Below are positions 1,567-36,486 of a stretch of 58,473 nucleotides of DNA, one piece after another. Under the pieces are notes generated by a model that saw only the letters and a program-made list of their open reading frames with translations, had not been told where the DNA came from and ran no database searches. The stretch is from Nanobdellota archaeon (lineage in GTDB: Archaea; Nanobdellota; Nanobdellia; SCGC-AAA011-G17; JAGVZF01). Location of the stretch: the NCBI GenBank assembly GCA_038046405.1, contig JBBSWI010000008.1:60939-119411 (forward strand), written 5' to 3'. Positions within the stretch are counted from its first letter, which is position 1, and the number at the start of each line of letters is the position of its first letter. A program made the position numbers and the translations under genes.

Positions 1567-1640
1567 GGGCCGGTAGTTTAGCTCGGCAAAATACTCGCAT
1601 GGCATGCGAGTGATCGAGGGTTCAAATCCCCCCCGGTCCA
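1567..1640 (+). tRNA. tRNA-Ala (anticodon GGC)
   Basis: Hand-folded cloverleaf. Acceptor GGGCCGG/CCGGTCC with G3:U70; anticodon stem CTCGC/GCGAG; loop ATGGCAT; T-loop TTCAAAT. One A-C mismatch in the T-stem. No encoded CCA. Confidence 0.8.
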
Positions 1641-1645
1641 CTTAA

Positions 1646-1718
1646 GGGCCAGTAATTAAACTTGGTATAATACTGCGTTCGCAATGCAGAAGTTCGGGTT
1701 CAAATCCCGACTGGTCCA
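1646..1718 (+). tRNA. tRNA-Ala (anticodon CGC)
   Basis: Acceptor GGGCCAG/CTGGTCC with G3:U70; anticodon loop TTCGCAA; T-arm TCGGG-TTCAAAT-CCCGA. Lies 5 nt after the previous tRNA. Confidence 0.85.
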
Positions 1719-15905: not shown

Positions 15906-16140
15906 TTACCTTCTTCCCAAAGTGACTTCTATTGTTGAGACTCTTACTAGCCTGTGCTCTTTGTTCTCGAATTCTTCAGAGTTTATCTTTATGTCTTTTA
16001 ACTCAATTATATTCTCTAGAAATCTCTTTGCTGCTACTTCTGCCACGTCCACTGCTCTCGAAATAAATTTCCCTCTTGCCTTTATTACTACTTCTTCTGC
16101 GTTCTGCGTCGTAAACTGCATGACTACACCTGTTACATAA
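15906..16140 (-). CDS. albA: Alba (Sac10b family) chromatin protein, downstream part of an interrupted frame
   Basis: (N)YVTGVVMQFTTQNAEEVVIKARGKFISRAVDVAEVAAKRF...VSTIEVTL, colinear with Alba. Confidence 0.85.
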
Positions 16141-16171
16141 TTATTGGCTCGATAGCCTTGACTACCGAACT
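16141..16171 (-). other. 31-nt insertion in alba; candidate BHB-like intron (boundaries +/-2 nt)
   Basis: Removing it joins ...KPFM to NYV... in frame. It contains a 9-bp stem GUUCGGUAG/CUAUCGAGC. Confidence 0.45.
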
Positions 16172-16236
16172 TTCATAAATGGCTTGCTGCCTATGAACAC
16201 TGTGTGGTCGTCAGTCCTGTGCATTTCCGAAGTCAT
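16172..16236 (-). CDS. albA: Alba N-terminal segment (MTSEMHRTDDHTVFIGSKPFM-) in a different frame from the rest
   Basis: GGGGGT SD-like run 7 nt upstream of the ATG at 16236. VFIGSKPFM corresponds to Alba beta-1. The unspliced frame ends at the TAG at 16162-16164. Confidence 0.6.
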
Positions 16237-16361
16237 TTTTGTTACCCCCATAATACACTACTTGTTTTACTAATTGTTATTGTTTTCTCTTTATGCTAAA
16301 ACCCACATGTTTGTAGAAATTTATAATACTTTCTTTTTTATACATATTAAAGAACAAAGAA

Positions 16362-35359: not shown

Positions 35360-35415
35360 ATTTTTAAACTGCTTAATTCTGATGTTATTTTACAGCCCCG
35401 TGGTGTAGCGGCCAA

Positions 35416-35438
35416 ATTTTTCATTGGAAGAAGGCTAG
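35416..35438 (+). other. 23-nt D-loop intron of tRNA-Gln (between D-loop ...GGCCAA and D-stem 3' strand GCAT)
   Basis: BHB layout: central helix GGCC/GGCU, bulge AAA, inner helix UUUUUC/GAAGAA with loop AUUG, second bulge AG(G). Confidence 0.7.
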
Positions 35439-35454
35439 GCATTACAGGCTCTGG

Positions 35455-35471
35455 AATTTAAATATGAAGAA
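35455..35471 (+). other. roughly 17-nt intron at the canonical 37/38 position of tRNA-Gln
   Basis: The insert lies between CTCTGG and A-CCTGT. It is AT-rich and only a weak BHB can be drawn. Confidence 0.55.
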
Positions 35472-35519
35472 ACCTGTCGACCCAGGTTCGAATCCTGGCG
35501 GGGCTATTTTAAATCTAAG

Positions 35520-36388: not shown

Positions 36389-36486
36389 GCTCCCGTAGTG
36401 TAGTCCGGTCAAATTAATTTAAAAATTAAGACTAAGCACTAGGGCTTCTCGAGCCTTCGACCCGGGTTCAAATCCCGGCGGGAGCA
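36389..36486 (+). tRNA. tRNA-Glu (anticodon CTC) with a D-loop intron
   Basis: Acceptor GCTCCCG/CGGGAGC; D-arm GTGT-AGTCCGGTCAA...GCAC; anticodon loop TTCTCGA; T-arm CCGGG-TTCAAAT-CCCGG. 98 nt in total, 75 nt after removing 23 nt. Confidence 0.8.
36413..36435 (+). other. 23-nt D-loop intron of tRNA-Glu
   Basis: BHB layout: central helix GGUC/GACU, bulge AAA, inner helix UUAAUU/AAUUAA with loop UAAA, second bulge AA(G). Same position and architecture as in tRNA-Gln. Confidence 0.7.

Follow-up and report, generated by a model that had tools for sequence, protein, structure and literature searches.

What could be the nature of 31 nucleotides that interrupt the gene of the archaeal chromatin and RNA-binding protein Alba and whose exact removal restores its reading frame? 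In the window, i.e., the whole 58,473-nt stretch of DNA that was analysed, the minus-strand alba gene consists of two segments, 16236..16172 and 16140..15906, parted by 31 nt (16171..16141). An open reading frame (ORF) having its ATG at 16236 encodes MTSEMHRTDDHTVFIGSKPFMKVR and ends with a stop codon at 16164..16162, three codons inside the insert, while a 71-amino-acid ORF (16121..15906, minus strand) represents the C-terminal portion of Alba. Omission of 16171..16141 leaves a coding sequence of 300 nt and a 99-amino-acid protein, containing ...VFIGSKPFMNYVTGVV..., that matches the Pfam Alba family PF01918 over positions 1–66 of 66 (E=4e-18), whereas the unspliced 71-amino-acid fragment matches positions 23–66 only, positions 1–22 being lost. 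The spliced protein shares up to 85% identity with intact Woesearchaeota Alba proteins and is 100% colinear with them, and it is through these relatives that the colinearity of KPFMNYV could be verified, without need of the Sulfolobus motif that the original prediction had invoked. The start of alba is probably at 16236 and not at the upstream ATG (16251) of the mechanical ORF list, the N-termini of relatives being MTSEMH; the gene lies in the order S17e–alba–Na/H exchanger, a synteny common to the relative L155.

The insert is not flanked by any duplication and its junction may be placed at any of three equivalent positions (ATG|AAA.., ATGA|AA.. and ATGAA|A..). Its 81-nt context has a folding energy of -19.2 kcal/mol (z=-2.5), and no second copy of its sequence exists in the window, even when up to three mismatches are allowed, so that nothing there points to a repeated mobile element. 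These data bear out what the original prediction had claimed with regard to the split of alba by an insert whose exact removal restores KPxMNYV, to the frame running from 16236 to a stop at 16162 with a second part extending down to 15906, to the 2-nt sliding of the junction and to the lack of a target-site duplication. The insert is also GC-richer than its surroundings, as had been stated, albeit only modestly (45% vs 40% in the exons), and it does contain a hairpin, of 10 bp (GUUCGGUAGU/GCUAUCGAGC) with a CAAG loop instead of the 9 bp with a UCAAGG loop originally described.

We consider it highly probable that the 31 nt (16171..16141, minus strand) represent a bulge–helix–bulge (BHB) intron within the alba coding sequence, excised by an endonuclease and followed by religation of the exons, an interpretation that derives from sequence comparisons, since splicing is unobserved, and that is subject to the reservation that a second, intact alba copy is not excluded. 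The hBHBh' motif is defined by 3-nt bulges on opposite strands, with a 4-bp helix between them, located at the exon–intron boundaries (PMC5829648), and the elements of the locus can be assigned to it as follows:

16172..16236, minus strand: alba exon 1, comprising 21 codons and the AA with which the Asn22 codon begins, encoding MTSEMHRTDDHTVFIGSKPFM, with a start that fits the N-termini of relatives
16141..16171, minus strand: putative 31-nt BHB-type intron AGUUCGGUAGUCAAGGCUAUCGAGCCAAUAA, with predicted 5' cut at 16172/16171 (AA|A), predicted 3' cut at 16141/16140 (AA|U) and an in-frame UAG
15906..16140, minus strand: alba exon 2, third base of Asn22, 77 codons and stop, encoding (N)YVTGVVMQFTTQ...TLGRR
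16147..16170, minus strand: inner helix h', a hairpin of 10 bp whose arms are 16170..16161 (5') and 16156..16147 (3'), with the loop CAAG at 16160..16157
16171..16173, minus strand: 5' bulge AAA of 3 nt, predicted to be cut after nucleotide 2
16174..16177, minus strand: 5' strand of the central helix H, UAUG (the Met codon preceded by the last base of the Phe codon), with 16146..16143 as partner
16143..16146, minus strand: central helix H, intronic 3' strand CAAU, followed by AA (16142..16141), nucleotides 1 and 2 of the 3' bulge
16179..16181, minus strand: outer helix h, 5' strand C-A-U (Pro codon bases 2–3 and Phe codon base 1), with 16138..16136 as partner
16136..16138, minus strand: 3' strand of the outer helix h, A-U-G, from the Tyr and Val codons of exon 2, with U16139/U16178 mismatched and U16140 as third nucleotide of the 3' bulge

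In the window's copy h' and h consist of 10 and 3 bp, respectively, and both bulges of 3 nt, but only two of the four positions of H are paired in register (G-C and U-A), the A.A and U.U oppositions remaining unpaired. The unconstrained minimum free energy (MFE) structure of a 53-nt fragment includes the outer helix h plus h', in keeping with the CAU/AUG pairing of the flanks that had been anticipated; the full BHB fold, on the other hand, is not the MFE, having a calculated energy of -10.1 instead of -12.4 kcal/mol, so that a folding of the pre-mRNA, proposed by the original prediction as a check, supports two of the helices without yielding the complete motif (2.3 kcal/mol above the MFE). 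As modelled, the window's BHB is a relaxed motif, of the type cut only by broad-specificity endonucleases.

Before attributing a function to the insert, it must be considered that assemblies of metagenome-assembled genomes (MAGs) do have errors, and this prior is the only argument for regarding the 31 bases as a spurious product of assembly or sequencing. However, the split alba is present on ten contigs, seven of which were compared and are base-for-base identical across 420 nt including the insert; these seven stem from separate assemblies (ENA Hainich H43 and H51 replicates, Logan ERR3858114 and ERR3858118, NCBI MAG GCA_964358805.1) that differ in samples and assemblers, H43 and H51 being groundwater wells. 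Furthermore, in a collection of 5.8 billion proteins none of the contiguous ORFs exceeds 85% identity to the spliced Alba, and inserts at the identical site occur in 26 other genomes. The artefact, initially left standing as an alternative, was rejected in view of the seven identical, independently assembled contigs, and its chances can be regarded as negligible.

The latter genomes allow the intron to be examined as a family. Scanning the GTDB species representatives with a sequence pattern yielded 27 loci, 26 of them with alba split at the identical codon by inserts of 21–35 nt, and one additional split alba (L040) emerged from a metagenome scan; the titles of the 26 further genomes refer nearly all to Woesearchaeota or Nanoarchaeia. 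The insert lengths recorded are 21, 27, 31, 32, 33, 34 and 35 nt and the sequences of the basal stems are unrelated between genomes. As a separate observation, an apical AG-U...CU element is conserved among the alba introns. Cutting between bulge nucleotides 2 and 3 gives back KPFMNYV in each of the 27 split genes, and an in-frame stop is found within every one of the 27 inserts, vs an expectation of 0.52 each upon shuffling. The spliced ORFs are complete and devoid of any other lesion in 25 cases, the other two being not fully assessable (L010 is truncated by the end of the locus and the start of L014 is unresolved). None of the 120 best matches is a contiguous protein that equals one of the spliced products, be it from a transcript or from an intron-less allele; P0001, taken into consideration as the intron-less allele of L010 whose N-terminus it matches, was discarded, the DNA differing at synonymous sites, and represents an intron-less relative. 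An uninterrupted alba is also present in the close relative L155, in spite of its sharing the same synteny. The metagenome scan (gap 3–33), which gave 119 intact genes and 1 split gene, can detect introns of no more than 30 nt, so that this ratio underestimates intron frequency. In the preferred reading, the alba intron goes back a long way and has been passed on mainly by vertical descent in part of the Woesearchaeota, some close relatives being without it.

What is preserved throughout the family is a succession of elements, in which an outer helix is followed by a 3-nt bulge, a 4-bp helix, a second 3-nt bulge and a hairpin. In 23 of the 27 sequences the insert has an MFE fold made up of 3 unpaired nt, a hairpin and 7 unpaired nt. 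With the predicted cut sites as anchors of the alignment, the first, second and third pairs of h' are each formed in 26 of the 27 genes, with all four Watson–Crick pair types represented, the four positions of H are paired in 27, 26, 14 and 19 genes and the three pairs of the outer helix in 25, 24 and 27; the 5' bulge reads AA|A or AA|U in 25 genes and the bulges of the family can be summarised as AA|A and NN|U. The proportion of paired cells is 87.1%, compared to 65.1% in shuffles, and the covariation score 0.613, compared to 0.177 (in both cases none of 500 shuffles reaches the observed value), whereas slid registers are only 25–46% paired. Double compensatory changes affect all six basal pairs of h' (25 sequences) and 8 of the 13 pairs overall. 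It should be borne in mind that covariation was analysed on cut-site-anchored, apex-trimmed sequences and that the 27 sequences are phylogenetically related, so that the pairing and covariation counts are not independent events. When 15 whole introns were simply aligned by MAFFT, RNAalifold recovered the hairpin only in part and at an energy close to zero, since the basal stem is misaligned on account of the differing lengths.

At the family level the predicted motif is close to the canonical hBHBh', with 3-nt bulges, a 4-bp central helix and cuts after bulge nucleotide 2, and three attributes of a BHB intron are fulfilled: two opposite 3-nt bulges and a 4-bp helix at the exon–intron boundaries, conservation of structure rather than sequence and, as far as predicted cuts can tell, a mature RNA of functional length after cleavage behind bulge nucleotide 2. 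The window's copy is among the weakest of the family; “relaxed”, as the original prediction had termed the fold, fits this copy, with its two pairs out of four in H, and not the family.

The exons, too, carry the imprint of the fold. In 24 of the 27 split genes, but only in 37 of the 115 without the intron (p=9e-8, Fisher test), the third base of the Pro codon can pair with that of the Tyr codon to give the middle pair of the outer helix, which covaries among the split genes as G-C, A-U or G-U; likewise, the Phe codon is UUC, the form that pairs with an intronic G, in 19 of 25 split but in 31 of 115 intron-less genes (p=1e-5). The intron-less controls (n=115) derive from metagenomes, i.e., a different collection, and their lineage composition may differ. 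Such visible selection of a splice motif on exon synonymous positions represents direct evidence of function and makes alba a rare case in which exon–intron coevolution can be measured in a prokaryote, a clean natural experiment.

These data are also relevant to the premise that the insert is an inactivating micro-insertion with an incidental hairpin, alba being a pseudogene or about to become one. This premise could account for the stop three codons into the insert in the frame of the uninterrupted gene, for the intact gene of L155 and similar close relatives and for the imperfect BHB of the window's copy. It does not account for the interruption of 26 other species-level genomes at the identical site, for the lack of further lesions in the assessable spliced ORFs or for the values of pN/pS, which are 0.185 for exon 1 (last 11 codons of 27 split genes) and 0.152 for exon 2 (41 aligned codons), with synonymous divergence being saturated (pS ~0.8). 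Both exons, as judged from these alignments, are under purifying selection, and the structure of the insert covaries with exon synonymous sites in a way that preserves the fold; a dead gene would not keep this constraint and this covariation, and the marks of a pseudogene (relaxed constraint, extra lesions, unconserved interruption) are not met. The “recent inactivating micro-insertion” envisaged at the outset is thus rejected on account of cross-species conservation and purifying selection on both exons, and must be deemed very improbable. Instead, the candidate-intron reading gained support from the comparison of alba loci in related genomes, a further check of the original prediction, in that 26 other genomes display the same codon, the same geometry, compensatory changes and intact exons, and no plain decay.

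If the gene is alive, must its RNA be processed? A stable hairpin and an in-frame stop near a potential take-off site superficially resemble the signal of phage T4 gene 60, and a ribosome bypassing the insert or shifting frame could in principle produce Alba without any RNA processing. However, the invariant Asn codon requires that the AA of exon 1 be physically joined to the U or C of exon 2, and the AAY codon is missing at the landing site in most genomes (e.g., L009, ...CAAGAG|U UAC). There is no match between take-off and landing codons, as a bypass of the gene 60 type would demand, the Asn codon being split across the gap; the insert lengths represent each of the three frame classes, so that no single frameshift rule works; and the covarying exon–insert helices H and h remain unexplained. 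Recoding is therefore hardly credible.

Alternatively, the two parts might never be joined, the product being the 71-amino-acid form from Met29, with or without a 24-amino-acid peptide, and the hairpin a regulatory or terminator-like element between cistrons. Exon 2 does offer an ATG (Met29), the one used by gene callers, and split protein genes are reported for Nanoarchaeum equitans (PMC3655853). Met29, however, is equally invariant in intron-less genes and hence provides no evidence for a start site, the six codons from the junction to Met29 (YVTGVV) are invariant in the frame of exon 2 though they would be untranslated, exon 1 is constrained like exon 2, and the shorter form misses the first 22 Pfam positions. 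Nor would exon–intron pairing and its covariation be explained, and we regard this possibility as very unlikely, leaving the BHB intron as the preferred reading.

Indirect support for an endonuclease cutting non-canonical positions comes from the tRNA genes of the window. Default ARAGORN and Rfam gathering-threshold scans found three tRNAs only, all intron-less, the intron-containing ones being found by ARAGORN -i and manual excision of D-loop inserts. The two D-loop introns to whose AA|A cut context that of alba had been likened are real (35416..35438 and 36413..36435), must be removed for the tRNAs to be functional and follow the rule AA|A-hairpin-4nt-NN|, i.e., the same geometry as the alba insert. 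Removal of 23 nt from the D-loop leaves a clean tRNA-Glu(CUC) in one case, the precursor of which spans 36389..36486; in the other, probably a tRNA-Gln, an anticodon-loop intron is still present after the 23-nt removal. A Pfam scan of ten ORFs of the window identified ribosomal proteins, SecY, enolase and GatD, and neither EndA nor RtcB was among these ten, the rest of the genome not being covered. Brute-force scans for other BHB or hairpin inserts fusing ORFs gave 561 candidates in the window and 215 in the window plus 27 loci, none convincing besides alba; these are dominated by chance matches in AT-rich DNA and further mRNA introns are not excluded, given that even the alba of the window escaped the stricter scan, no more than two of the four H pairs being formed there.

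The pathway proposed for the BHB intron is the following. The pre-mRNA would pair through the CAU/AUG outer helix, the AA|U bulge, the UAUG/CAAU central helix, the AA|A bulge and the intronic hairpin of 10 bp; EndA, the tRNA-splicing endonuclease of archaea, would cleave each bulge between nucleotides 2 and 3, and a ligase of the RtcB type would unite AUGAA and UUAUG to give the Asn codon of the invariant KPFMNYV and a 99-amino-acid Alba. The predicted mature junction is ...CCAUUUAUGAA|UUAUGUAACAGG..., 31 nt shorter than the DNA, and the predicted peptide spanning the exons is KPFMNYVTGVVMQF; the 31-nt intron would be released, probably as a circle, whereas an mRNA left unspliced would undergo termination at the intronic in-frame UAG. 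The enzymes, the actual cleavage and ligation and the circularisation are inferred, there being no data on spliced transcripts, junction reads or circular introns.

More speculatively, and with rather less than even expectation on our part, an ancient, obligatorily spliced intron might make these reduced DPANN cells dependent on the tRNA-splicing machinery for their main chromatin/RNA-binding protein, with the retained stop and the apical AG-U...CU serving as a gate or regulatory handle, and might be the tip of a wider set of unannotated BHB introns in DPANN coding genes that are now scored as truncated or missing in MAGs. In practical terms, gene callers shorten alba to 71 amino acids in these MAGs, which affects inferences on DPANN gene content, completeness and a “missing chromatin protein” and argues for BHB-aware annotation; moreover, alba offers a simple substrate of ~65 nt with which the specificity of splicing endonucleases in DPANN, so far little studied, can be probed.

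How does alba compare with known systems? In the literature searched, cbf5 of Crenarchaeota is listed as the sole archaeal coding-sequence BHB intron, in addition to one Haloferax 5'-UTR case (PMC7714728, 2020; PMC12397907, 2025), in agreement with the premise from which the original prediction had started; a mRNA intron in alba or in Woesearchaeota is unmentioned in the literature searched, subscription-only papers being outside its scope. The cbf5 pre-mRNA intron (Watanabe 2002; Yoshinari 2006; Yokobori 2009, PMC2738675) resembles that of alba in that it is short, of BHB type and splits a codon of a conserved motif, has predicted cuts between bulge residues 2 and 3, relaxed motifs in many copies and mis-annotated truncated ORFs, and is patchily distributed among related species, which implies gain and loss. 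Cleavage of the experimentally supported cbf5 introns occurs between bulge residues 2 and 3 (PMC2738675), and the agreement of the alba cut rule with this one was counted as support for a BHB intron. On the other hand, the gene is a different one, hyperthermophilic Crenarchaeota stand against DPANN Woesearchaeota of mesophilic groundwater, and the host endonuclease probably differs, being by inference α4 with an L3 loop (PMC5829648) in the alba hosts and (αβ)2 in the cbf5 hosts; also, splicing of cbf5 has experimental support and that of alba comparative evidence only. Membership in the cbf5 type (cbf5 gene, catalytic Asp codon, Crenarchaeota) is thus not met, the element being of the same kind and the family another.

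With the non-canonical archaeal tRNA introns having a relaxed BHB (Marck and Grosjean 2003; PMC5829648) alba shares a geometry identical to that of the window's D-loop introns (4-nt helix strands, 4-nt loop, AA|A, NN|) and presumably the enzymes; the hairpin of these introns has 6 bp instead of the 10 bp of alba, and the alba introns always contain an in-frame stop. Since the host RNA is a mRNA, codons constrain the exon halves of H and h, which are kept up by way of synonymous sites. In Haloferax volcanii, the HVO_1309 mRNA has a BHB intron in its 5' UTR (PMC7714728) and is, as proposed for alba, a substrate of the archaeal splicing endonuclease; removal of this intron is apparently needed for efficient expression (PMC7714728). 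Unlike that of alba, it lies in an untranslated leader without interrupting a frame, belongs to a single species and is experimentally verified.

In eukaryotes, HAC1/XBP1 splicing is cytoplasmic, stress-regulated and carried out by the IRE1 endonuclease together with RtcB or Trl1 ligase. Here too a short intron of a coding region, RNA stem-loops, a protein endonuclease and a tRNA ligase alter the protein made, but IRE1 and its recognition motif are unrelated and there is no evidence of regulation for alba. Compared with all these cases, alba would constitute the second family of coding-region BHB introns, in a new gene, a new superphylum and at least 27 species-level genomes, and with such a second family endonuclease-type splicing of mRNA would be no crenarchaeal oddity.

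On the minus strand, an ORF with its ATG at 16236, behind a GGGGG Shine-Dalgarno-like run, encodes MTSEMHRTDDHTVFIGSKPFMKVR and then stops, and a second ORF (16121..15906, minus strand) encodes the C-terminal 71 residues of Alba. The N-termini of relatives indicate that the true alba start is likely to be 16236 (MTSEMH); in the ORF list and in some gene calls, a 29-aa fragment (MGVTKM...) begins further upstream, with the ATG of 16237..16251 (minus strand). With 31 nt (16171..16141) removed, the CDS is 300 nt long and its 99-aa product, which contains ...VFIGSKPFMNYVTGVVMQF..., spans positions 1–66 of the 66 of the Pfam Alba domain PF01918 (E=4e-18), the 71-aa fragment alone covering only positions 23–66. 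The top matches of this spliced product among 5.8 billion proteins are intact 95–104-aa Alba proteins named Woesearchaeota or Nanoarchaeia, with up to 85% identity at 100% coverage, and all of them share KPFMNYVTGVVMQFTTQ unchanged. The two frames and their restoration to Alba by a 31-nt deletion, as read in the original prediction, are thus borne out. The window has a GC content of 35% and its other genes include a ribosomal-protein/SecY operon, enolase, GatD and the primase PriS.

An artefact of assembly, which had been raised as a possible source of the insert, is contradicted by its recurrence in separately assembled DNA. The exact 71-aa product is found on ten contigs and the seven that were fetched, each assembled separately (Hainich groundwater wells H43 and H51 in several replicates, two Logan raw-run assemblies and one NCBI MAG), match the window base for base over 420 nt, the 31-nt insert included. 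Since, in addition, the protein collection (5.8 billion) holds no contiguous ORF >85% identical to the spliced product, the insert is present in every assembled copy of this population.

The decisive result is the conservation of the interruption across species. Scanning GTDB, one genome per species, for the exon motif (CCN TTY ATG, 19–49 nt, TAY GTN ACN GGN GTN GTN ATG CA) returned 27 loci, in 26 of which alba is interrupted at one shared position, with ATG-AA on one side and Y-TAY on the other; the remaining one (L025), a chance double motif within an intact gene, was excluded. The comparison of alba loci in relatives that accompanied the original prediction as a check gave 26 further species genomes split at the same site, plus one split alba (L040) from a metagenome scan. 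Nearly all source MAGs are titled Woesearchaeota, Nanoarchaeota or Nanoarchaeia; the MAG that holds one archaeal split alba (L030, JAHIVA010000097.1, 2384 nt) bears the title “Patescibacteria group bacterium”, probably through a binning error. The inserts are 21, 27, 31, 32, 33, 34 or 35 nt long and their basal stems cannot be aligned between genomes (GUUCGG/UCGAGC in the window, GAAAAA/UUUUUC in L034, the closest relative of the window copy, and CCGCAG/UGGCGG in L015), and yet in 23 of 27 the MFE fold consists of 3 unpaired nt, a hairpin and 7 unpaired nt. Removal of the insert leaves a complete Alba ORF of 97–112 aa without further lesion in 25/27; of the two others, L010 is cut off where the stored locus ends and L014 has an unresolved start.

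Anchored at the cut sites, the split alba sequences display a single common architecture of the bulge-helix-bulge (BHB) type. The outer helix h is formed by C-G, N-Y (the third bases of the Pro and Tyr codons) and U-A, followed by a U.U mismatch; the central helix H pairs a 5′ strand YAUG (third base of Phe plus the Met codon) with the four intron nucleotides that follow the hairpin (consensus CAxG); the 5′ bulge is AA↓A and the 3′ bulge NN↓U, the arrow marking the predicted cut, and the inner hairpin is h′. Placing the cuts between bulge nucleotides 2 and 3, the rule given in PMC2738675 for cbf5 introns with experimental support, restores KPFMNYV in 27/27 split alba genes. In two loci (L026, 3656..3686, minus strand, and L028) the entire motif lies one nucleotide downstream (AAU↓A ... 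UCAG AG↓UAY) with Asn-Tyr still made, an example of intron sliding. The elements in the window are:

C16181-G16136, A16180-U16137, U16179-A16138, minus strand: outer helix h
U16178.U16139, minus strand: mismatch
G16174-C16146, U16175-A16145 (paired), A16176.A16144, U16177.U16143 (unpaired), minus strand: central helix H
16173..16171, minus strand: 5′ bulge
16170..16147, minus strand: inner hairpin h′
16142..16140, minus strand: 3′ bulge

With two of four pairs, the H of the window is among the weakest of the set; in its unconstrained MFE structure h and h′ are retained and an internal loop stands in place of H, a BHB-like fold lying 2.3 kcal/mol higher. The exact BHB is the MFE structure in several relatives (L008, L027) and is within 1 kcal/mol of it in four loci (L023, L024, L029, L030). 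At the hairpin apex (16163..16152, minus strand, in the window and homologous positions in L009–L034), A-G / C-U closes a 6-nt loop starting with U; this AG-U(N5)-CU element is common to most inserts despite their unrelated basal stems (e.g., UAG-UCAAGG-CUA and AAG-UUAAGG-CUU) and could reflect common descent or a bound element.

The fold is supported by covariation. In a gap-free alignment of 25 cut-anchored sequences (41 columns, hairpin apex trimmed for register), 87.1% of the cells are paired on the proposed structure vs 65.1% after shuffling, double-sided changes number 87 cells vs 28 and the covariation score is 0.613 vs 0.177, paired fraction and score being reached by 0/500 shuffles. 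All six h′ pairs undergo compensatory double changes, with the four Watson-Crick types represented. These counts derive from related, not independent, sequences; however, sliding the 3′ partners by 1–3 columns either way, a control that retains the relatedness, leaves only 25–46% paired. Because the exon strands of h and H lie within codons, only synonymous sites in them can vary, and here the split genes depart from 115 unique intron-less alba genes with the same protein motif. The Pro third base can pair with that of Tyr in 24/27 split genes (13 G-C, 9 A-U, 2 G-U) vs 37/115 (Fisher p=9e-8), CCU/UAU being the commonest combination in the intron-less set, and Phe is encoded by UUC, which pairs with an intronic G, in 19/25 vs 31/115 (Fisher p=1e-5). 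Selection at synonymous sites for pairing with the insert can be understood only if the RNA fold is in use.

Pairwise Nei-Gojobori comparison among split genes (pS ~0.8, saturated) gave a pN/pS of 0.185 in exon 1 (last 11 codons) and of 0.152 in exon 2 (41 codons). Exon 1 is under no less constraint than exon 2, though the unspliced frame would give a peptide of only ~24 aa, and the six codons from the junction to Met29 (YVTGVV) are invariant; judged by these substitution patterns, both exons are functional. A pseudogene, or the inactivating micro-insertion envisaged in the original prediction, is contradicted by this purifying constraint together with the interruption at the same site across species and the adaptation of exon synonymous sites to the insert. 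If a 71-aa protein were expressed on its own from Met29, the constraint on exon 1 and YVTGVV would be left without explanation, as would the exon–insert covariation. Translational bypass or frameshifting across the insert is also rejected, in that the Asn codon arises only from joining AA with U/C, take-off and landing codons do not match and all three frame classes are represented among the insert lengths. A stop in the exon 1 frame occurs in 27/27 inserts, those of the window and of L008–L034, vs 0.52 per insert expected from shuffling, a count inflated by shared ancestry; even so, the stops differ in form (UAA, UAG, UGA) and in position, in stem or loop. They may plausibly reflect selection against aberrant Alba translated from unspliced mRNA, which by inference would matter most for inserts of 21, 27 and 33 nt, otherwise read through in frame.

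The original prediction had also noted an AA↓A 5′-cut context shared with two inserts in the D-loops of tRNA genes:

35416..35438, plus strand: 23-nt D-loop insert, GGCC AA↓A UUUUUC-AUUG-GAAGAA GGCU AG↓G
36413..36435, plus strand: 23-nt D-loop insert, GGUC AA↓A UUAAUU-UAAA-AAUUAA GACU AA↓G

The likeness extends to the whole cut rule (AA↓A, hairpin, 4 nt, 2 nt), which sums to 31 nt in alba (1 + 24 + 4 + 2) and to 23 nt in each tRNA intron (1 + 16 + 4 + 2). Removal of the second by the alba rule gives a clean 75-nt tRNA-Glu(CUC) (gene 36389..36486, plus strand) that Rfam does not detect at the gathering threshold. Removal of the first leaves a tRNA still holding an anticodon-loop intron of ~17 nt (gene 35394..35506, plus strand), probably Gln(CUG) with two introns, which is missed by default ARAGORN and Rfam; ARAGORN -i labels it Leu and, after D-loop removal, Pyl(CUA), through alternative intron placement, and both labels are taken as erroneous. 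The window also holds, at 1567..1718 (plus strand), a tandem tRNA-Ala pair (anticodons GGC and CGC) separated by 4 nt. From these same-geometry introns it is inferred that the genome must possess an endonuclease cutting such geometry at non-canonical positions. From DPANN lineages, α4-type splicing endonucleases (EndA) with an extra L3 loop are reported, linked to more disrupted tRNA genes (PMC5829648).

Self-splicing by a ribozyme is, by inference, implausible for inserts of only 21–35 nt. Conservation, covariation, exon adaptation and exon constraint support the candidate intron, and we hold it highly probable that the alba insert is an RNA-level BHB intron, in the absence of RNA or enzymatic evidence and with endA, rtcB and a second alba copy unchecked genome-wide.

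For 19/26 split genes, vs 19% by chance, the closest Alba neighbour is likewise a split gene, and intron subtypes track protein relatedness (window/L034; L009/L021/L014; L017/L027; L026/L028; L023/L024). Together with the shared apical element, this fits one old acquisition followed by vertical descent. A Logan contig (L155, SRR32573209, 378..677) with the S17e-alba-Na/H-exchanger synteny of the window carries an uninterrupted alba (...CCATTTATGAATTATGTT..., protein 85% identical), an “empty site” indicating that precise loss, or patchy gain, also occurs, as likewise described for cbf5 introns (PMC2738675).

No report of an alba intron was found in the searched literature, including a preprint of 2026 that covers 208 complete Nanobdellota genomes, subscription-only work lying outside the search. 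The mechanism class, with EndA as the nuclease for BHB introns and RtcB as the ligase, is already known. In line with the original prediction, coding-sequence BHB introns in this literature are confined to cbf5 of Crenarchaeota: a 2020 paper (PMC7714728) states that “only one example” was on record and adds a 5′-UTR intron in Haloferax, and structural work of 2025 on archaeal splicing endonucleases refers to the same three papers on cbf5. The alba intron is not a member of the cbf5 family and is classed as a second family of coding-sequence introns, new in both gene and superphylum.
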